From positions 1 to 32,000 of the forward strand of contig JAFGBS010000014.1 of NCBI GenBank assembly GCA_016933055.1: a stretch of DNA of 32,000 nt, in the 5' to 3' direction. A program made the position numbers and the translations under genes. Source of the stretch: Promethearchaeota archaeon (GTDB lineage: Archaea; Asgardarchaeota; Lokiarchaeia; Sigyniarchaeales; Promethearchaeaceae). This document shows, piece after piece, positions 5,987-17,973 of this stretch (positions within the stretch are counted from its first letter, which is position 1; each line of letters begins with the position of its first letter). The notes beneath the pieces were generated by a model. It saw only the letters and a list, made by a program, of their open reading frames with translations. It ran no database searches and had not been told where the DNA came from.

Positions 5987-7624
5987 TTATTTTAATATTC
6001 CTTCTTCAATTAAATCCAATACACGAGACAATACATCCGATTCTGATATATAACCATCCCAAGTTTTAGATAGTTGAACAAGAATTTGATCAATAGTCAT
6101 CATAGATTCTTTTCGTACGGTTTCGACTATTAAACTCTCCAGTGTAGTCAACAATGCCTTTTTCTGATTGTAAACTACATCAGATAATGTGAATATACGA
6201 TCATAAGGGATATTCTCCGGAAAAGGATTGAAATATTGATAGAATAATTTATCTATGTGTGGTTTTATTCCCATAAGATCGATAACTCGTTGTTCGAACA
6301 CATCCTTGAATTCATTTTCAATTACTTGGATGAATTCTTTGGTTTTTTGAAGGTAAATTTTTTCAGGATGCTTTTTGAACCGTAGTATTGTCTTGACACC
6401 TGAGTTACCAGTTCCAATAATCGCATGCAAATTCCCAAAATCTAAATAATCCACTTCTTGTATTTTCTTAAATCGTAAAAATCGATCACGTACTATTTCC
6501 ATAGTTTGCATTAAACCAGAGAAAATCGTTATTTCATTTGAATCGCTTTTTGTACGGGTATATAAATGCCTTCCTATATGAAGAATAATGAGATCTTGTA
6601 AATTATCATAAGTTATATATTCAGAATTAGGATTGTGATATGAAATACTTTCAATTTGATTATTTCGTTTCAATATTGCTAATATTTTCTTACTTTCAAC
6701 GATAGAATTGCCTAATGCTAAAAGATTAACCAGATTGGGTTCAAAATTCATTTGAAGGCATTTCTTTATTTGCTCATTGGATTCTTGAGTTAAAATATCT
6801 AATTCTTCCTTGGGGAGATCATCCAGATTAATACTTTGTTCCCAAAATTCCATTAAGGTTTTCGATTCAGAATTATTTAATCCCCAAATCAACTCCAACG
6901 AACGTCTTGTAATAGTGAATTTATTTAAATGTTCAAATTCAGTGAGGTAATATATTCCTAGTTCAATCGAATAATGTTCCTCTTTCATGTCGTTAAGATG
7001 ATGGTGTAATTTTGACAACATTCTATCGATTGTTAAAGGACTATATTCCTTAGGAACCCATTTTTTTGAGCATTCTAAAAGCTCCGGTAACCTCCGAAAA
7101 AAAATACTTTCATTTTCCGTCTCATTTATATCAAAATAAAAGGTGTTAATCCCAAACACTTTGTTAAAGAGTTTTTTTAGATGTAGGTTGTAAAAGAATT
7201 TACTAAGTTCCCTGCGAGGAGTATCACCATTATAATTCATCCCGATTAGAAGTAATGGTATATATGACCTTCGGATTTGGCTGATTTTCGAAAAAAATTC
7301 CTTGCATTCATCAGAAAGAGTGATATTTGTATTATCACACACCATAATGATAGCATCTGCTTCTCGAAATTCCTTTTTGGGAGTTATTATCGTAGAAAGA
7401 AGCAATGGTTGTATCAAATAAATTCGTAATTTATATTTGCACTGTCCAAGCAACTTCTTACGAGTAAATTTCTCATTGGGAAATTCGAAATATACTAAGG
7501 CAGTTTTCCCAGGTGTAGATTGGAATCCTAAATAGTTTCGAAACTTCGATACAGCTTCTTGATCCCCACACAGCAAGATATTATAGGAGTCCATTTTACT
7601 CATAGTACTTTCTAAATATCTCAT
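5987..7624 (-). CDS. Multidomain protein: degenerate small-GTPase-like N-terminal domain, longin-like domain and probable C-terminal winged helix
   Basis: N-terminal pattern NILLCGD...FREADAIIMVCD...IPLLLIG follows the Rab/Roc fold with G1, G3 and G4 motifs lost. Residues ~342-450 (LIILHIGRHLY...IFSGLMQTM...IQEVDYLDFGN...FIQVIENEF) fit a longin-like pattern. Ends with LDLIEEGILK. The start may be 7603 or 7594. Confidence 0.6.
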   Translation of the reverse strand: MRYLESTMSKMDSYNILLCGDQEAVSKFRNYLGFQSTPGKTALVYFEFPNEKFTRKKLLGQCKYKLRIYLIQPLLLSTIITPKKEFREADAIIMVCDNTNITLSDECKEFFSKISQIRRSYIPLLLIGMNYNGDTPRRELSKFFYNLHLKKLFNKVFGINTFYFDINETENESIFFRRLPELLECSKKWVPKEYSPLTIDRMLSKLHHHLNDMKEEHYSIELGIYYLTEFEHLNKFTITRRSLELIWGLNNSESKTLMEFWEQSINLDDLPKEELDILTQESNEQIKKCLQMNFEPNLVNLLALGNSIVESKKILAILKRNNQIESISYHNPNSEYITYDNLQDLIILHIGRHLYTRTKSDSNEITIFSGLMQTMEIVRDRFLRFKKIQEVDYLDFGNLHAIIGTGNSGVKTILRFKKHPEKIYLQKTKEFIQVIENEFKDVFEQRVIDLMGIKPHIDKLFYQYFNPFPENIPYDRIFTLSDVVYNQKKALLTTLESLIVETVRKESMMTIDQILVQLSKTWDGYISESDVLSRVLDLIEEGILK

Positions 7625-11006: not shown

Positions 11007-12593
11007 ATGCAAGACTTGCTAAACGTGGGAATCGATTCCATTGGATTTTATGCACCACGGTTCTATATCGAATTGGAGGAATTAGCAAAAGCACGCAAAG
11101 TATCCCCAAATAAATATAAAGAGGGATTACTCCTTAAAGAACTTCGATTTACGGATATAGGTGAGGACATAATATCTCTCGGATTCCATGCAGCAAGAAT
11201 TGCACTTCAAAGAGGAAATATTAACTCCCAAGAAATTGATGGTGTGTTTGTCGGAACAGAAACGGAAACTTATGCAGCGAAATCAATTTCCAATATATTT
11301 ACTGAACTATTGGATATTCCTCCTAATTGTTTAACCCAAGATATTATGAATACATGCGCATCAGGTACCTTAGCTATATTAGATGCAATCTCTCTCGTGG
11401 AATTAAGAATTGTAACTAAAGCCTTAGTCATAATTACGGATATATCGAATTATGAAAAACATAGTGCGGGAGAGCCAACACAAGGAGCTGGTGCGGTTGC
11501 ACTAGTTATTTCAAAGAATCCCCGGATTGCTTCCTTTTCCCGATCTTTCGGGAAAGTGTCTGGAAATGTGGATGATTTCTTTCGCCCAAAAGGTAATAAA
11601 AATGCTCAAGTATTTGGAAAATATTCTGTTCAATCCTATTTAAACCTCCAAATGAAAGCTTATGAGAATCTTGAAAATCAAATTGGTGACATCAATGCAG
11701 ATTACTTCATTTTTCATGGTCCTTATGCACGATTACCCTTAAAATTGATGTATAAACTAATTTCTAAAAATTGGCTTTATCGCATTGAAAAAAAGATAAG
11801 TAAATATACACCCTTTCCAAATTCGGATATATTAGATCGTATATTCAGCAATGTATCAATAGTACCTGATTTTATTGTGAACAAATTAGCGGAGATTACT
11901 GCAAATTCTGAGGAATTTGAATCAATTAAGATGCGACTGCGGGATGTGATCAAAAACACAGTTTTACCTCAACTACATATTCCTATGTATTTTGGTAATA
12001 TGTATTCAGCCTCATTATGGGCTCAGTTGCAATATTTGCTCGAAACGGCATTAAAACCAAATGATTATGTATATTTCGGATCCTATGGTTCTGGGGCAAC
12101 CTGTATATCGGGATTAATTAAAATAAATGAGAGATATTCTGAAGTAATTAGGAATCCCCCCACAGTTCGGGATATTATGACTAATAAAGTGAAGAAATCC
12201 ATTCCTGAATATGAAGAGATTAAATACAATCAACTTAAACCAGAATTAGTATGGGCGAAAATACAATCACTAGAGGATCATCCAGGCTATACTCTTCGGT
12301 ATTGCGATAAAGGTTGCTTGTTATCACCAATTCAAGGCATAGAATATTGTCCAAAAGGACATAGTGGAATCAATACATTATATTTTCCCATTTATGCAAC
12401 TTTAATAACTATTATAAAGCCTTTTGATCAAAATGATTTAAGTCCATTGAAGGATGGTCTTGTTCTACTGATTGGAAAACCCCATATAGGTTCTACCTTA
12501 GAATTTGAATTAAGACGTACCCAATCAAATGAAGAAGGTAGTGAAGCAAAAGGATTATTGAATTGGATACCGATTTATAATGCAAATATTTAG
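11007..12593 (+). CDS. mvaS: HMG-CoA synthase (MvaS-like) with a fused C-terminal DUF35-like Zn-ribbon/OB-fold domain
   Basis: VGIDSIGFYAP, catalytic triad E85 (GTETE), C117 (NTCASG), H237 (FHGPY); GEPTQGAGAVA, GNMYSASL, FGSYGSGA. About 120 extra C-terminal residues with C433-x3-C-x10-C-x3-H and IGSTLEFELRR...GLLNW. Confidence 0.9.
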   Translation: MQDLLNVGIDSIGFYAPRFYIELEELAKARKVSPNKYKEGLLLKELRFTDIGEDIISLGFHAARIALQRGNINSQEIDGVFVGTETETYAAKSISNIFTELLDIPPNCLTQDIMNTCASGTLAILDAISLVELRIVTKALVIITDISNYEKHSAGEPTQGAGAVALVISKNPRIASFSRSFGKVSGNVDDFFRPKGNKNAQVFGKYSVQSYLNLQMKAYENLENQIGDINADYFIFHGPYARLPLKLMYKLISKNWLYRIEKKISKYTPFPNSDILDRIFSNVSIVPDFIVNKLAEITANSEEFESIKMRLRDVIKNTVLPQLHIPMYFGNMYSASLWAQLQYLLETALKPNDYVYFGSYGSGATCISGLIKINERYSEVIRNPPTVRDIMTNKVKKSIPEYEEIKYNQLKPELVWAKIQSLEDHPGYTLRYCDKGCLLSPIQGIEYCPKGHSGINTLYFPIYATLITIIKPFDQNDLSPLKDGLVLLIGKPHIGSTLEFELRRTQSNEEGSEAKGLLNWIPIYNANI

Positions 12594-13779
12594 GCACTCT
12601 CCGATTTTTAATCAATTGAAGCAAGATTATCAAGATATAATACACTATTTGGAAGAAAATCACTATCACATAGAACCTGTCCCAACATATCAAACGGCTA
12701 ATTATGATTTCGGAGAAGAATGCGCTATTGCATTCCCAATTCAAGGTCTATTAAAATATCATGGAATGTTAGATTCCTATGAGAGAATTGCGCTGTTCCC
12801 CAGTATATCCCTTAATAATGATGCGTTCTATACCGTTACTTACCTCAAATTTGATCCTGATTTGATCGAGGACATATTTTATTTAAACGGTAAAGTACAA
12901 TCCCACAACAATGAATATGAACGAGTAAAATTCCAATTAAACAAGATTCGGAACCATGCTGGAGTTCAAAGTAAAGCATTTATTATATCAAGGAATTTTA
13001 CTAGAACTGATTCTGCACAATTATCAGGAAAAGGATTGGGAACATCAGCGGCTGGAGGTGCCGCAATAGCCCGAGCTGCGTTTTCGATTCTATATAAGGA
13101 TAAAATATATGCAAACAATTCTCGGTTACAAAGTGTTTTTTCTCGATATCTATCTGGTTCAGCTGCAAGAAGCAGCGTAGGTGGTTTTGCATTATGGATG
13201 AGTAAACCTGATAGAGAAACATGGAATAGTTATGCAATACGTTTAGATACTCCTGAATATGAGGATTTTATTAATACAATCTCACTTATTTCCATCCCTT
13301 TTAGTTCCTCCTTTAGTACTTCTTTAGCTCATAGACTTGCTCCAAGTTCTCCTTTTTACCAAAAATGGTGTTTATCACGTAAAGAAAAGATATTCAAATT
13401 TCTTCAAGCGTTTCAAGATCGGGATTTTAAGATTATAGGAGAATTAGCTGAAGAGGATTCCAGAATTTTACATCAAATTAGTAATACAGCAGATTTTGGA
13501 CTTACGTATTGGAACGATAAAACAAGAGAATTAATGAATTACGCTGATCAGATGAAAAAAAAAGGTATCCCTGTTTATTATACAATAGATACTGGCCCCT
13601 CCGTAGTATTTCTCACTCAAAAAAAATATGAAGATCAAATAATTCAAGACTTACATCTCCAATTTAAATTATCTTCAAAAATATTTAGGGGATCTGTAGC
13701 CGGACCAAGCAAATTAATTCCACCAAATTCTAATTTAATTCACCTATTGGATGATGACTTTGAAAAATTCAGCTCCTAG
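12580..13779 (+). CDS. mvaD: GHMP-family mevalonate decarboxylase, haloarchaeal/Chloroflexi-type phosphomevalonate decarboxylase
   Basis: AFPIQGLLKYHG (haloarchaeal PMD has AHPIQGLVKYHG), GLGTSAAGGAA, SGSAARS, PVYYTIDTGPSV. Overlaps the mvaS stop by 14 nt. Confidence 0.85.
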   Translation: MQIFRHSPIFNQLKQDYQDIIHYLEENHYHIEPVPTYQTANYDFGEECAIAFPIQGLLKYHGMLDSYERIALFPSISLNNDAFYTVTYLKFDPDLIEDIFYLNGKVQSHNNEYERVKFQLNKIRNHAGVQSKAFIISRNFTRTDSAQLSGKGLGTSAAGGAAIARAAFSILYKDKIYANNSRLQSVFSRYLSGSAARSSVGGFALWMSKPDRETWNSYAIRLDTPEYEDFINTISLISIPFSSSFSTSLAHRLAPSSPFYQKWCLSRKEKIFKFLQAFQDRDFKIIGELAEEDSRILHQISNTADFGLTYWNDKTRELMNYADQMKKKGIPVYYTIDTGPSVVFLTQKKYEDQIIQDLHLQFKLSSKIFRGSVAGPSKLIPPNSNLIHLLDDDFEKFSS

Positions 13780-14926
13780 TTCGCGACTACCTGGTTTTCA
13801 TAATCTTTCCATCAAGGAACGACAAGAAATTATAAAGAAATTATCAGGTTTAACTAATGAAGAAATAGATCAATTAAATAACTTCGGAAATCTGGGAATG
13901 GAGTTAGGAATTAAATTTTCAGAAAATGTTATTGGAGGATACACCTTACCAATTTCAATTGCTACTAATTTTCAAATTAATTCGAAGGATTACCTTGTTC
14001 CCATGGTCACGGAGGAATCCTCTGTTGTTGCAGCAGCATCTTATGGTGCTAAATTAGCTCGAAAATATGGAGGTTTTGTTTGTGATCCTTTAGAAAATCT
14101 AATGATCGGTCAACTGCAGATTTTACTGGAAAAACGAGATGACATCGAAAATTTTATCCGACCATTAAAATCAGAATTCCTAAGGAAAATCAACGAACAA
14201 CACTCTACTTTATCATCAGTGGGAGGGGGTGCGAAAGAACTAAGATTTAGAAAAATACAATCTAGCCGGGGTGGAATGGGTATTCTTGAATTGGAAGTTG
14301 ATGTGGTGGATGCAATGGGAGCAAATATTGTTAATTCTATGATGGAAACCCTTGGAAAACTACTACAAAGGAAATATCATGAAAAAATCCGTGCAAAAAT
14401 AGTTTCTAATCTCGCCATAGGTCGAATATGCAAATGTAAAGCAATTTTTGATACAGAAGAAATGGGAAGAGATGTAGCACATAAATTAGTAGATATCTAC
14501 GCATTTGCTGAAGCAGATCCATACCGTGCTGTGACCCACAATAAAGGTATAATGAATGGAATTATTGCATTAGCATTAGCAACAGGGAATGATACACGTG
14601 CTTTAGAAGCAGCTGCTCATGGATATGCTTCAATTGATGGAAAATATAGACCTTTAAGTCGATTTTATTTAAATGAAGAAGGAAATTTAGTTGGATCTAT
14701 ATCAGTTCCCTTACCTATGGGTATTATAGGTGGAATCACATCTATGAATCCCGTATCTAGAATTGCCTTAAAAATTTTGGGCATTTCCACCGCTACAGAA
14801 TTAATACAAATCGCAAGTGCGGTGGGTTTGGCTCAGAATATTTCCGCCCTTAGGGCACTTGCCGACGAAGGCATCCAAAAATCTCACATGCGATTGCATG
14901 CACGAAAATTTGAAAATAGAAGATGA
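13751..14926 (+). CDS. mvaA: HMG-CoA reductase, class II
   Basis: SRLPGFHNLS, ENVIG, PMVTEESSVVAAAS, DAMGAN, THNKGIMNG, GNDTRALEA, GIQKSHMRLHAR. Confidence 0.95.
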   Translation: MMTLKNSAPSSRLPGFHNLSIKERQEIIKKLSGLTNEEIDQLNNFGNLGMELGIKFSENVIGGYTLPISIATNFQINSKDYLVPMVTEESSVVAAASYGAKLARKYGGFVCDPLENLMIGQLQILLEKRDDIENFIRPLKSEFLRKINEQHSTLSSVGGGAKELRFRKIQSSRGGMGILELEVDVVDAMGANIVNSMMETLGKLLQRKYHEKIRAKIVSNLAIGRICKCKAIFDTEEMGRDVAHKLVDIYAFAEADPYRAVTHNKGIMNGIIALALATGNDTRALEAAAHGYASIDGKYRPLSRFYLNEEGNLVGSISVPLPMGIIGGITSMNPVSRIALKILGISTATELIQIASAVGLAQNISALRALADEGIQKSHMRLHARKFENRR

Positions 14927-14930
14927 GACG

Positions 14931-15875
14931 ATGATTATTGCATCAGCACCCGGAAAATGTATATTACTTGGAGAACATGCAGTGGTGTACGGATATCCAG
15001 CCGTTGCAGTTGCGTTAAACATTCGATCTTATTGCTCAATTCATAGAATCTCTGAAAAATACATTCATTTTAATTTACCAGACCAATCTTTTGACATAAT
15101 ATGTGAAAATTTAGAACAATTACTAAAATCAATCCCTCAAAAATACCTACAATTTCCTCAAGTACTAGTTAGTCTATCTAAGCGATTTAATTTCAAAGTT
15201 TCTAACATATCAATCCAAATTCAATCAAATTTATGGAGAGGAGCGGGATTAGGCTCATCAGCATCAACATCAATAGCTTTCTTATTTGCCATCTTTCATC
15301 TATACAGAGTGGATAAAAAATTCATACCTGAATTTGCATTCATGATGGAGAAATATGTCCATGGAACACCATCTGGAATTGATAATAGTGTTTGTTATTG
15401 GGGGGGTACCTTAGTTTTTCAAGAGAAAATAAGAGAGAAATTCACGATTCCTAAATTTCCTATGTTGATCACGCATTCAGGAACTACTCATAATACCGGA
15501 AATATTGTTAGAGAAATAAAAAATAGCTCTTCTTCTATGAAAAAATCATTCTCGGAAATTGGACAGATAGTTCAAGAAGGATTAAACGTGCTAAAACTGG
15601 CAGACCTTGTGCGTTTAGGTGAACTGTTTAATAAAAATCATGATATTTTGTCAACAATGGGAGTTTCAACAGAAGATATCGAAATTATTCGAACAATAGC
15701 CTTAACAAACGGTGCTTATGGCTCCAAAGTCACAGGAGCGGGAGGGGGAGGATGTGTGATTTCATTAGGGGAGTTGAATAATTTAAAAAAAATCAAATCC
15801 ATCCTTCATCTCAGAGGATATATCAGCAAAATATCTTACGTGGATTATAATGGTGGTAGAATTGAATCAGAATAG
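14931..15875 (+). CDS. mvk: Mevalonate kinase
   Basis: ASAPGKCILLGEHAVVYG, GAGLGSSAS, HGTPSGID, SKVTGAGGGG. The start is placed at ATG 14931, 4 nt after the mvaA stop; the ORF-track start at 14817 lies inside mvaA. Confidence 0.95.
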   Translation: MIIASAPGKCILLGEHAVVYGYPAVAVALNIRSYCSIHRISEKYIHFNLPDQSFDIICENLEQLLKSIPQKYLQFPQVLVSLSKRFNFKVSNISIQIQSNLWRGAGLGSSASTSIAFLFAIFHLYRVDKKFIPEFAFMMEKYVHGTPSGIDNSVCYWGGTLVFQEKIREKFTIPKFPMLITHSGTTHNTGNIVREIKNSSSSMKKSFSEIGQIVQEGLNVLKLADLVRLGELFNKNHDILSTMGVSTEDIEIIRTIALTNGAYGSKVTGAGGGGCVISLGELNNLKKIKSILHLRGYISKISYVDYNGGRIESE

Positions 15876-16648
15876 ATCGGTAATTATCATAAAGATTGGA
15901 GGAAGTGTGTTAACATATAAAAAGATTCTAATGAGCCTAAGGAAAGTTATTATAGACTATATATTAGATCAATTATCAGAGATTTGATAAAGATTTATCA
16001 TTGTTCATGGGATGTGTTGTTTGGTCACACTGTTATAAATAAATGCACAATACATTAAGGTTCAAATAAGAAAAAATGAAATTATTCACTAAGATTAAGA
16101 AAAACTTGTATTCTCACGTTAGATTTAAATTTAACGTTCAATCAAAGCTTGATAGATCGAAATGTGGCAAGCATTCTTTTATATTCCTCCAGTGTATATG
16201 AATAAAAAAACGATCAAGTCTATTTTCAAAATACCATTTTGACCATTGAATCCTTGCAAAATTACGAGACTGTACCCGTTCTTATGGAGTAGTAATCTTT
16301 CAATCCCCCCCCATTTTCTAATGTGACGGGAGATCGGCTCGTACAGGAGATTTTTACTCATATTTAATCCTATATTGTCAAGAAAGTTATTTATGCATTT
16401 GGTCAATACGGAACAATCATAAATCATAAATCAATTGAATAAATTCATTGTTCCGGACCAAATTCCCTACCTATTAAAGGGAAAAGTGATGCTGTTCAAC
16501 GGGCAGGGGGACTTAAAGAAAAGTTATAAGAGATCCGCTGATATATCGGTTGATTATTACCGTTATGTTGATAAATGGACTTAAAAATAATCACATGACG
16601 CCTTCAACTCAATCCAATGGTATTCTTTGCTCGAAATTTGAAATTTGA
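15862..16648 (+). pseudogene. ipk: Decayed isopentenyl phosphate kinase (amino-acid-kinase superfamily) pseudogene
   Basis: Colinear motif remnants: IIIKIGGSVLTYK (15883-15921), tandem stops at 15985-15990, FIIVHG (15994-16011), -1 frameshift, FGH (16020-16028), VPVL plus frameshifted xGVV (16272-16294), TGDRLV (16326-16343), KKVIY, GGLKEKL (16506-16526), INGLK (16571-16585), stop at 16646-16648. Total span is about 262 codons. Confidence 0.85.
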
Positions 16649-16839
16649 ATTGAATGTAAGACGTACAGCAAAATCTTCCGATAATTCAGAAAATATGATC
16701 TTTAAGAAATTCTACACACGAATTCTGATAATTATTATTAGGGCGATAGAGCTCAAATTCATAGATCTTGCGCAATAACTTTATAAATTCGCTCTACAAT
16801 TGTTTCATAGATATTTAACGAATAACGGAATGAAAAAAA

Positions 16840-17973
16840 ATGTTTGATTTTGAAGAAGAAGAAGAATATCGGGATGAAACGGATACAGGAGATGAAGCAG
16901 AGCAATACGATGCATTTCGAGAGGAAGACATCGCCGCCGAAAAAGAAATTGTAGCAGAGGGAAAAGATTACACCTTAATTGAAGTTGATTTGTGGGCAAC
17001 CTCCCTCCATGATGCAAAAATAGGTATTCGTCAAGATGCACAGTACCAATCAAAATCTCGACAGTTCACAAAAACATCAGAAGTTATTGGAAATGTTGTG
17101 TTTCACACTGGATGGGATGAAAATCGTCAAAAAGAGAATTATGAGGAAGTTATAACTATAGATCAAGAGTTTTGGGATATTGGAAAAAAATCCAAAATTA
17201 TGCAAATAGTCCAAGATCGGTATTCTGATTATGATCCCAAAAAATTTGCCCGTATGATGCGAAAATTAGTTATTAAGACTTTTGTAGATTTGGGTCGTAA
17301 ACAAGAAGAACGGATGCGAGGAAGATGGACTGGTAGTTTTGAAGAATCCCAAGTAATGTCGTTAGTTATGACATTCGGAGATCGAAGAAGGCGTAATCCC
17401 CTACCGTTCTTTTATGTAGATATTCCAGGTTTTAAATATCGAGTGCCAGTGACACGGGTTCACACAATAATTGGAGATCGATATGTATTTCCAATGATTG
17501 ATGATGAAACCAACTCAGTAGTACCTTATTTAATAGAAGAAAGACGATTTACTTTCGGTCAAGACTATCAGCTATTTGATGGAAGGACAATGAAAAAAAT
17601 TGCCGTAATTAATGATGTTGCGATAAATATTGGAGGCAAAGTTAATATCAAATTCAAAAAGCCAAAGATTGATAAAAATGGGGAATTAATTGATCCTTGG
17701 GAACATTTAAGGAGAAATTATGTATTTCAACGTATAATTATTTTGTTTGCTGCAAGTTTAAACTATTTTCATTCAATTTATCGGCAATACCGACGAGTCC
17801 ATCGTGCAATGAAGACTTTACGGAGTTATCAGAAAGACAAGGGAAAGCTTTCTCTTATGGAACAAGAAGAAAAGTACCGACAAGCCAAAAAGAAGATGAG
17901 AATCCTGAAGTGGTACCCTGTATGGGCAAAAGAGTTATCACTTCATTATAATCCACGCAGAGTTAGAACATAA
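16840..17973 (+). CDS. Hypothetical protein with an acidic N-terminus, a possible LURP-one/Tubby-C-like beta-rich domain and a basic C-terminus
   Basis: 377-aa ORF; N-terminal EEEEEYRDETD. The segment EERRFTFGQDYQLFD...KKIAVINDVAINIGGKVNIKF...RIIILFAASL resembles the LURP-one pattern by eye. Confidence 0.6.
   Translation: MFDFEEEEEYRDETDTGDEAEQYDAFREEDIAAEKEIVAEGKDYTLIEVDLWATSLHDAKIGIRQDAQYQSKSRQFTKTSEVIGNVVFHTGWDENRQKENYEEVITIDQEFWDIGKKSKIMQIVQDRYSDYDPKKFARMMRKLVIKTFVDLGRKQEERMRGRWTGSFEESQVMSLVMTFGDRRRRNPLPFFYVDIPGFKYRVPVTRVHTIIGDRYVFPMIDDETNSVVPYLIEERRFTFGQDYQLFDGRTMKKIAVINDVAINIGGKVNIKFKKPKIDKNGELIDPWEHLRRNYVFQRIIILFAASLNYFHSIYRQYRRVHRAMKTLRSYQKDKGKLSLMEQEEKYRQAKKKMRILKWYPVWAKELSLHYNPRRVRT

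Follow-up and report, generated by a model that had tools for sequence, protein, structure and literature searches.

Lokiarchaeia have been assigned the phosphomevalonate-decarboxylase (Haloarchaea-type) route of the mevalonate pathway, which needs an isopentenyl phosphate kinase (IPK) (PMC11052028). Where, then, is the kinase gene of the Promethearchaeota archaeon of assembly GCA_016933055.1, in which the mevalonate kinase gene mvk is followed only by an apparent gap? In this study, we analyzed positions 1 to 32,000 of contig JAFGBS010000014.1 (the whole stretch of 32,000 nucleotides is called the window below). The interval from the mvk stop to the next gene (ATG 16840) is 964 nt long, every stop-to-stop frame in it is shorter than 90 codons, and gene callers show just an intergenic gap there. 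An initial annotation of the window had placed a decayed, full-length IPK gene in this interval. In this paper, the mvk-linked kinase is named IPK-1 and its paralogue on contig C36 of the same genome is named IPK-2. The gap contains a non-functional, full-length unitary pseudogene of IPK-1, and we believe that IPK-1 became dispensable in the clade, that IPK-2 probably carries out the step, and that the relic most likely has no function; the probability of this whole reading is, in our estimate, about 85%.

The genome (G000) is a metagenome-assembled genome (MAG) of 3.76 Mb that is 91% complete, and its congener G001 is a MAG that is 76% complete. For comparison with relatives, the mvk loci of 40 genomes were gathered, and the gene order beside mvk was read in 29 loci.

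Identity and lesions of the IPK-1 relic

A hidden Markov model (HMM) of 270 positions was made from 25 mvk-linked IPKs of relatives and the IPK-2 of G000. A profile of the mvk-linked IPKs was needed because the IPK-2 paralogue is too distant for tblastn, which aligned just the N-terminal 52 residues with the region (E 4e-4). The profile matched the gap in three plus-strand frames, which are colinear and cover profile positions 2-268 (15859-16636), and the reverse frames of the region gave zero matches. When all six frames of the genome were searched, the E values of the two larger relic pieces were 4.7e-16 and 4.7e-10, respectively; the relic ranked second after the intact IPK-2, and the sole other match was a weak one to pyrH. 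With this full-length, colinear similarity, the relic is a descendant of an IPK gene, as the initial annotation had claimed. The motifs that it had named (KIGGSVLT, IIVHG..FGH, VPVL, TGD, GGLKEKL and INGLK) are all found at the right profile positions, with VPVLME in the place of PILYGD, NVTGD in that of IISGD and AGGLKEKL in that of VTGGIKGKL.

The number of in-frame stops, first given as roughly ten, is exactly 10 (7 TAA, 2 TGA and 1 TAG), and two frameshifts, at 16015-16019 and 16539-16540, suffice to explain the frame changes, where at least three had been proposed. Frameshift 1 is one base missing within the HGxGSFGH motif; HG and FGH are both kept but lie in different frames, and KIGGSVLT is intact. 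The proposed start, TTG 15862 with a 14-nt overlap with the mvk stop, and the proposed end at 16648 are both correct. When the relic was read through with X at the breaks, it reached 137.0 bits on the IPK-1 HMM, with positions 3-266 of 270 aligned, and 41.6 bits on an IPK-2 HMM. Intact IPK-1 proteins of genera excluded from the model scored 260-330 bits, and the relic reaches about 45% of the score of an intact orthologue. It is about 259 codons long, compared with about 267 profile positions, and has no large deletion. The region holds no uninterrupted frame of about 260-290 codons, and the best single-frame piece remained under the curated cut-offs, with 28.0 bits on NF040647 (cut-off 120) and 18.3 bits on PF00696 (cut-off 24.9).

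In the trees, the relic fell within the IPK-1 clade (support of the IPK-1/IPK-2 split, 100/100) on a branch of 1.6-2.7 substitutions per site, 6-12 times the median of 0.2-0.3. Its profile score, its tree position and its place after mvk all assign it to IPK-1 rather than IPK-2. IPK-1 lies directly after mvk in relatives, where it is translationally coupled, and a comparison of the orthologous locus in related Lokiarchaeia, which had been recommended as a check, gave an IPK gene beside mvk in 27 of the 29 loci. The relic is an orthologue of these genes, and it is broken.

The lesions are not an artefact of assembly or sequencing. Short contigs from the hot-spring metagenome of another study (X2) were 100% identical to the window over 15875-16040, 16367-16530 and 16593-16843, and the contigs of that study span four stops and frameshift 1; the X2 and X3 contigs leave 16076-16327 uncovered, and six of the ten stops are backed only by the likely source run. 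The latter is represented by a 194-kb Logan contig from another assembly (X1), which was identical to the window over 14900-17400 and likely comes from the window's own source run, so it is not independent. The view that the decay is no sequencing error was thus borne out, by the identical contigs of the other study and by the independently broken orthologue in the closest relative found, described below. No RNA data set turned up that contains the stretch, and its sequence words were almost absent from two metatranscriptomes of the same study, from which no statement on expression follows.

Loss of IPK-1 in the clade and the genes around it

The closest mvk found, 60% identical to that of the window, comes from two contigs, L068 (ENA, 59 kb) and L069 (Logan), whose gene order is that of the window; an mvk search of a metagenome-contig collection gave no relative. 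On both contigs an IPK-1 pseudogene again comes after mvk, and its TTG start overlaps the mvk stop by 14 nt, as in the window. This sister relic is broken by 3 stops and 1 frameshift; its two frames matched profile positions 3-150 and 153-269, and the read-through sequence scored 201 bits. The window relic and the L068 relic have no lesion in common. They are sisters in the tree (support 89/87), with branch lengths of 1.62 and 1.01 (median 0.29) substitutions per site, and their protein identity is 38%, compared with 60-88% for the flanking genes. In L068, the relic is followed by tandem small open reading frames (ORFs) at 7138-7323 and 7407-7553, which encode Lys/Pro/Ala-repeat proteins (KPAPKPAAKPAPK...) with acidic tails and are not in the window.

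The identities between the two relics at the first, second and third codon positions were 55.9, 64.2 and 39.0%, respectively (chance, 28%), and those between the neighboring genes were 68-87, 79-96 and 42-53%, respectively. Because the pattern of second over first over third position survives, we infer that selection probably still acted on the IPK-1 protein during much of the period after the lineages split, and that the inactivations were independent and fairly late, with the reservation that alignment bias may somewhat inflate the pattern.

Seven more loci of the clade (mvk 46-54% identical, G001 included) have a nitroreductase gene of 190-193 aa in the slot and no IPK-1, and their gene order is mvk, nitroreductase gene, 375-aa gene and pyrG. 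The interval from mvk to the next gene in G001 was searched, and no IPK remnant was found. A trace between mvk and the nitroreductase gene in L070 (6 bits) was too weak and was not used. With two relics that have distinct lesions and with the loci that bear a nitroreductase gene, at least three losses of IPK-1 are counted in this genus-level clade. In 9 of the 9 clade loci, the orthologues of the conserved 377-aa protein encoded downstream of the relic come after the pseudogene or the nitroreductase gene; the 377-aa gene marks the downstream edge of the lost slot of IPK-1 and the isopentenyl diphosphate (IPP) isomerase IDI2 across the clade.

IPK-1 probably became dispensable at the base of this clade, and its copies were then inactivated independently in the different lineages. 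The copy in the window gathered ten nonsense substitutions and two small indels and suffered no large deletion. The full-length, substitution-dominated decay suggests a weak deletion bias in the lineage, and the relic may last because dead DNA is deleted slowly there. It is most likely without a function of its own, because its N-terminal small ORF is not kept in the sister relic and the seven other loci lack the region. The positions of the relic and of its neighbors are collected below.

Features of the window around the IPK-1 relic, and the module that contains IPK-2
Feature	Position	Strand	Description
IPK-1 pseudogene, whole	15862..16648	+	Ancestral start TTG 15862 (ATG 15850 possible too); terminal TGA 16646-16648
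Segment A (frame of 15850)	15859..16014	+	Profile 2-53, 40.8 bits; KIGGSVLT glycine loop and IIVHG; stops TGA 15985, TAA 15988
Frameshift 1	16015..16019	+	8 nt, 9 needed, between GGG of HG and TTT of FGH
Segment B (frame of 15852)	16020..16538	+	Profile 56-235, 60.7 bits; FGH, VPVLME, NVTGD, AGGLKEKL; eight stops
Segment B stops	TAA 16056, TGA 16077, TAA 16203, TAG 16290, TAA 16293, TAA 16365, TAA 16440, TAA 16527		
Frameshift 2	16539..16540	+	Frame switch from profile position 235 to 237
Segment C (frame of 15851)	16541..16636	+	Profile 237-268, 6.8 bits, i-E 2e-4; LINGLK
HMG-CoA synthase	11007..12593	+	Pfam HMG_CoA_synt_N and HMG_CoA_synt_C; first operon gene, intact
GHMP-family mevalonate-phosphate decarboxylase (PMD or DMD type), intact	12580..13779	+	Pfam MVD-like_N and MDD_C
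HMG-CoA reductase, intact	13751..14926	+	PF00368, 317 bits
Mevalonate kinase (mvk)	14931..15875, stop 15873-15875	+	TIGR00549, 227.3 bits, cut-off 163
A+T-rich spacer, 28.5% G+C	16649..16839	.	No IDI2 remnant
Conserved 377-aa protein of no known family	16840..17973	+	Pfam and NCBIfam, zero matches
Module with IPK-2	G000:C36:85003-88333 (L051:3003-6333)		Heme-O-synthase-like UbiA prenyltransferase, HTH_10 protein, 275-aa membrane protein, IPK-2

The mechanically called mvk ORF starts from GTG 14817 and overlaps the HMG-CoA reductase gene by 110 nt. Because the similarity to relatives starts only at residue 37-42 of this long ORF and MIIASAPGKC matches the start of the G001 protein, the true start is probably ATG 14931, 5 nt past the reductase stop. 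The HMG-CoA synthase scored 240.7 bits on TIGR01835, under the cut-off of 360.35, and is 81.6% identical to its L068 orthologue. The decarboxylase scored 146 bits on TIGR01240 and 140 bits on NF040704, each under its own cut-off. Between G000 and L068, the identity is 60-65% for the decarboxylase, the reductase and mvk and 78-88% for the HMG-CoA synthase, the 377-aa protein and PyrG. Because the former three are less conserved than the other genes of the operon region, this part of the operon (12580-15875) is apparently evolving fast. The 377-aa gene precedes pyrG (CTP synthase), and a paralogue with 25% identity at G000:C6:125154-125852 adjoins pyrH (UMP kinase); a link of this family to pyrimidine nucleotide metabolism is possible.

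IPK-2, the missing isomerase and the fate of the pathway

Besides the relic, G000 has four other amino-acid-kinase genes, and one of them is the intact IPK-2 (C36:87512-88333). IPK-2 scored 173.6 bits on the equivalog model NF040647 (cut-off 120), and its best matches among solved structures are all IPKs (7N9D and 7LNT, E about 1e-33 over residues 5-260). With the mvk-linked IPKs of relatives it shares only about 30% identity, and IPK-1 and IPK-2 match characterized IPKs about equally. Orthologues of IPK-2 with 44-69% identity were found in 9 of the 40 relatives (G001, G004, G006, G008, G010, G013, G025, G026 and G032). All nine except G001 also carry the mvk-linked gene, and in G001 IPK-2 is the sole IPK. 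The tree of these orthologues follows the species grouping, and IPK-2 occurs throughout the Asgard archaea (Promethearchaeota, Thor- and Hodarchaeota). IPK-2 is an old, vertically inherited paralogue and not a xenologue.

This settles several suggestions of the initial annotation. It had proposed that a paralog or xenolog elsewhere replaced the broken gene, and the paralogue was found, with vertical inheritance speaking against the xenologue. The implication that no IPK is left is weakened, because the intact IPK-2 lies on C36. The search for a second ipk or a phosphomevalonate kinase, also recommended there, was successful for the former; no archaeal phosphomevalonate kinase was found above the cut-off in G000. 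Finally, the operon had been called otherwise intact, which is right for the four upstream genes and not for IDI2, the next gene after IPK-1 in relatives, which is gone without trace.

In the reading that we prefer, IPK-2 probably now turns isopentenyl phosphate into IPP, which would be the simplest explanation of how the step is done. Several observations weigh against so simple a take-over. First, an IPK-1-type gene is also present in 25 of the 29 phylum-level genomes in which IPK-2-type matches occur, and this usual co-occurrence suggests that the two are not fully redundant. Second, a phytol/polyprenol-kinase-like membrane protein is encoded directly before IPK-2 on the same strand in 17 of 17 Asgard loci. 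Because of this pairing, the native substrate of IPK-2 may be a longer prenyl phosphate, and its activity on isopentenyl phosphate is a prediction. Third, no IPP isomerase (IDI2 types A/B or IDI1) and no IspH were found in G000 and G001, which are incomplete MAGs. The pathway may be undergoing changes that go beyond a take-over by a paralogue. Fourth, the N-terminal 54 codons of the relic are markedly better kept than the rest (64% of the intact-orthologue score, compared with 14-37% in the other segments).

The membrane protein has 262-275 aa (275 in G000) and an invariant G-DG-AD--GR--G motif. Its AlphaFold model (pLDDT 88.6) resembled phytol-kinase and polyprenol-kinase clusters with TM scores of 0.79-0.81. 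The feature score of the protein for this kinase family was 0.94-0.95. The protein had no Pfam or NCBIfam match, and a Foldseek search against the PDB gave none at E <= 0.001 and a weak match to CdsA (E 0.14). In the window's family, a gene for a heme-O-synthase-like UbiA prenyltransferase lies upstream of the pair. We speculated that the C36 module is a candidate two-step salvage route from prenol to prenyl diphosphate. Literature searches turned up no report of two IPK paralogues, and none of a lack of IDI in Lokiarchaeia.

In relatives, IDI2 comes after IPK-1; for example, the order in Promethearchaeum syntrophicum (G010) is mvaS-mvaD-HMGR-mvk-IPK1-IDI2. IDI2 was above the cut-off in 34 of 41 genomes. 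The best IDI2-like matches in G000 and G001 scored 53.5 and 48.6 bits, respectively, and are an FMN L-lactate-dehydrogenase-like protein (in G000 at C16:128409-129503). No IDI2 remnant was found beside the window relic or the L068 relic, and the ancestral IDI2 site (16649-16839 in the window) is empty in 9 of 9 clade loci. The synteny around a second IDI2-like paralogue of P. syntrophicum is not kept in G000, and its loss cannot be demonstrated by synteny. A loss of lipid-precursor autonomy may have occurred, given that IDI2 was not found anywhere in the assembly.

These results lead to the strongest alternative, which we consider unlikely on balance: the end of the pathway has been dismantled. 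The clade would have lost the IPK-1/IDI2 end, IPK-2 would work in a prenol-salvage pair, and the cells would depend on an undescribed isomerase or on partners that supply prenols or allylic primers. The position and wide occurrence of IDI2 in relatives, the poor IDI2-like matches in G000 and G001, the failure to find IDI1 and IspH, and the empty sites beside both pseudogenes are all consistent with it, as are the pair of membrane protein and IPK-2, kept in all 17 loci, and the predicted fold of the former. Against it, IDI was only not found in two incomplete MAGs, which does not amount to absence. Purifying selection acts on the four upstream operon genes, all intact and 79-92% identical to L068 at the second codon position, and this counts against dismantling because a pathway with no outlet would make little sense. 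In addition, IPK-2 passes the equivalog cut-off for IPKs and may well accept isopentenyl phosphate, given the substrate flexibility that PMC8500459 reports for IPKs as a class. In its widest form, the alternative says that the clade has repeatedly discarded the IPK-1/IDI2 end and has no recognizable IPP isomerase, that its one remaining IPK-family enzyme belongs with a phytol-kinase-like membrane kinase, and that IPP and dimethylallyl diphosphate (DMAPP) come from an undescribed isomerase or from two-step prenol salvage, possibly syntrophic; we regard this form, too, as doubtful.

Co-option of the relic is very improbable. The region could serve as a 45-codon N-terminal ORF (15850-15987), as the 3' untranslated region or terminator of the operon, or as the promoter region of the next gene, and the better-kept N-terminal codons and the full length kept with no deletions would fit such a role. 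However, the small ORF is not conserved in the sister relic, whose first stop is at codon 19 (TGA 5986 in L068), and the seven nitroreductase-bearing loci lack the region entirely. An Rfam search of the whole window gave zero matches, and the small ORFs of the region, including an 82-aa ORF on the minus strand, had no family match besides the AA_kinase trace.

That the gene is functional and its breaks reflect sequencing or assembly error, an alternative code or programmed recoding was raised only since the genome is a MAG, found nothing in its favor, and can practically be dismissed in view of twelve lesions, the use of all three stop codons beside flanking genes that are open under table 11, identical independent contigs, a profile score less than half of the intact one, a broken catalytic HGxGSFGH and a terminal branch 6-12 times the median.

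The route upstream of IPP also varies among these archaea. The order CR-4 has been reported to have DMD-like decarboxylases and no phosphomevalonate kinase (PMC11052028). A second mevalonate-kinase-like GHMP kinase of G000 (C5:68153-69109; L053:2153-3109), also present in relatives, scored 153.6 bits on TIGR00549, just under the cut-off of 163, and is a questionable candidate for a phosphomevalonate kinase. No intact AcnX was found in G000. The sister families f2, f3 and f4 of the same order (loci L054-L059) have a cluster of UbiD-like decarboxylase, AcnX, mvk and IPK-1(-IDI2), and the window's family has the operon of HMG-CoA synthase, decarboxylase, HMG-CoA reductase and mvk, mostly with no AcnX. 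Because of this difference, two variants of the mevalonate pathway exist within one order. IPK-1 and IDI2 are fused in one open frame of 577-665 aa in G015, G017, G019, G023-G025, G027, G029, G031, G033-G035, G040 and G003, and a fusion of IDI2 and IPK-1 was seen in a sister family. A 1.18-kb ORF-free gap of G000 (C13:13362-14543; L052:2362-3543) holds an AcnX-like N-terminal third with five stops, which matched Pfam AcnX over positions 19-145 of 400 with 39.9 bits. As a second fossil of the mevalonate pathway, this remnant was dropped, since it scored 7 bits against the mvk-linked AcnX of the sister families.

Comparison with known systems

As a pseudogene, the relic is real but fairly ordinary, and the remaining interest lies in the recurrent loss, the real role of IPK-2 and the missing isomerase. 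The result corrects the annotation of the locus; a pathway survey would miss the loss, or would credit the genome with one IPK unaware that it is the paralogue outside the operon. Asgard archaea have two old IPK paralogues, and the repeated loss of the operon-linked one in a single genus is a natural experiment that can tell if IPK-2 is able to support the mevalonate pathway. With IDI2 missing, it also raises the question of the source of DMAPP in these archaea. Both points bear on the evolution of the mevalonate pathway and on the debate about lipid autonomy in Asgard archaea (PMC11052028).

Compared with archaeal IPKs (NF040647 IPPK_Arch; PF00696 fold; 3K4O, 3LL9, 3LKK, 7LNT and 8U0K), the relic has the same length and the same order of motifs (K-x-GGS loop, HGxGSFGH, GD, SGD, GG-x-K-x-K and INGLK), and its place right after mvk is that of the gene in relatives, including Promethearchaeum syntrophicum. 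It differs in being non-functional, with its ten stops and with two frameshifts, the first of which breaks the His motif. The Haloarchaea-type mevalonate pathway (PMC11052028) and the operon in the window share the HMG-CoA synthase, the GHMP decarboxylase, the HMG-CoA reductase and the mevalonate kinase. However, the IPK of this operon is dead, IDI2 is missing, and the remaining IPK is the paralogue encoded next to a prenol-kinase-like membrane protein.

In plants, phytol is salvaged by the phytol kinase VTE5 and then by the phytyl-phosphate kinase VTE6. The C36 protein encoded before IPK-2 is predicted to be VTE5-like in fold, carries the motif GGDGLADIIGRKYG, and is likewise followed by a kinase that may add the second phosphate. 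In contrast to VTE6 (DUF92), this second kinase belongs to the IPK family.

Ordinary unitary pseudogenes arise after the loss of one of two paralogues, and the same is seen here: a dispensable gene is inactivated and its paralogue is kept. The IPK-1 relic differs from them in that it decayed mainly by substitutions and hardly lost any length, and in that the gene decayed independently in a sister lineage and was replaced by another gene in a third.

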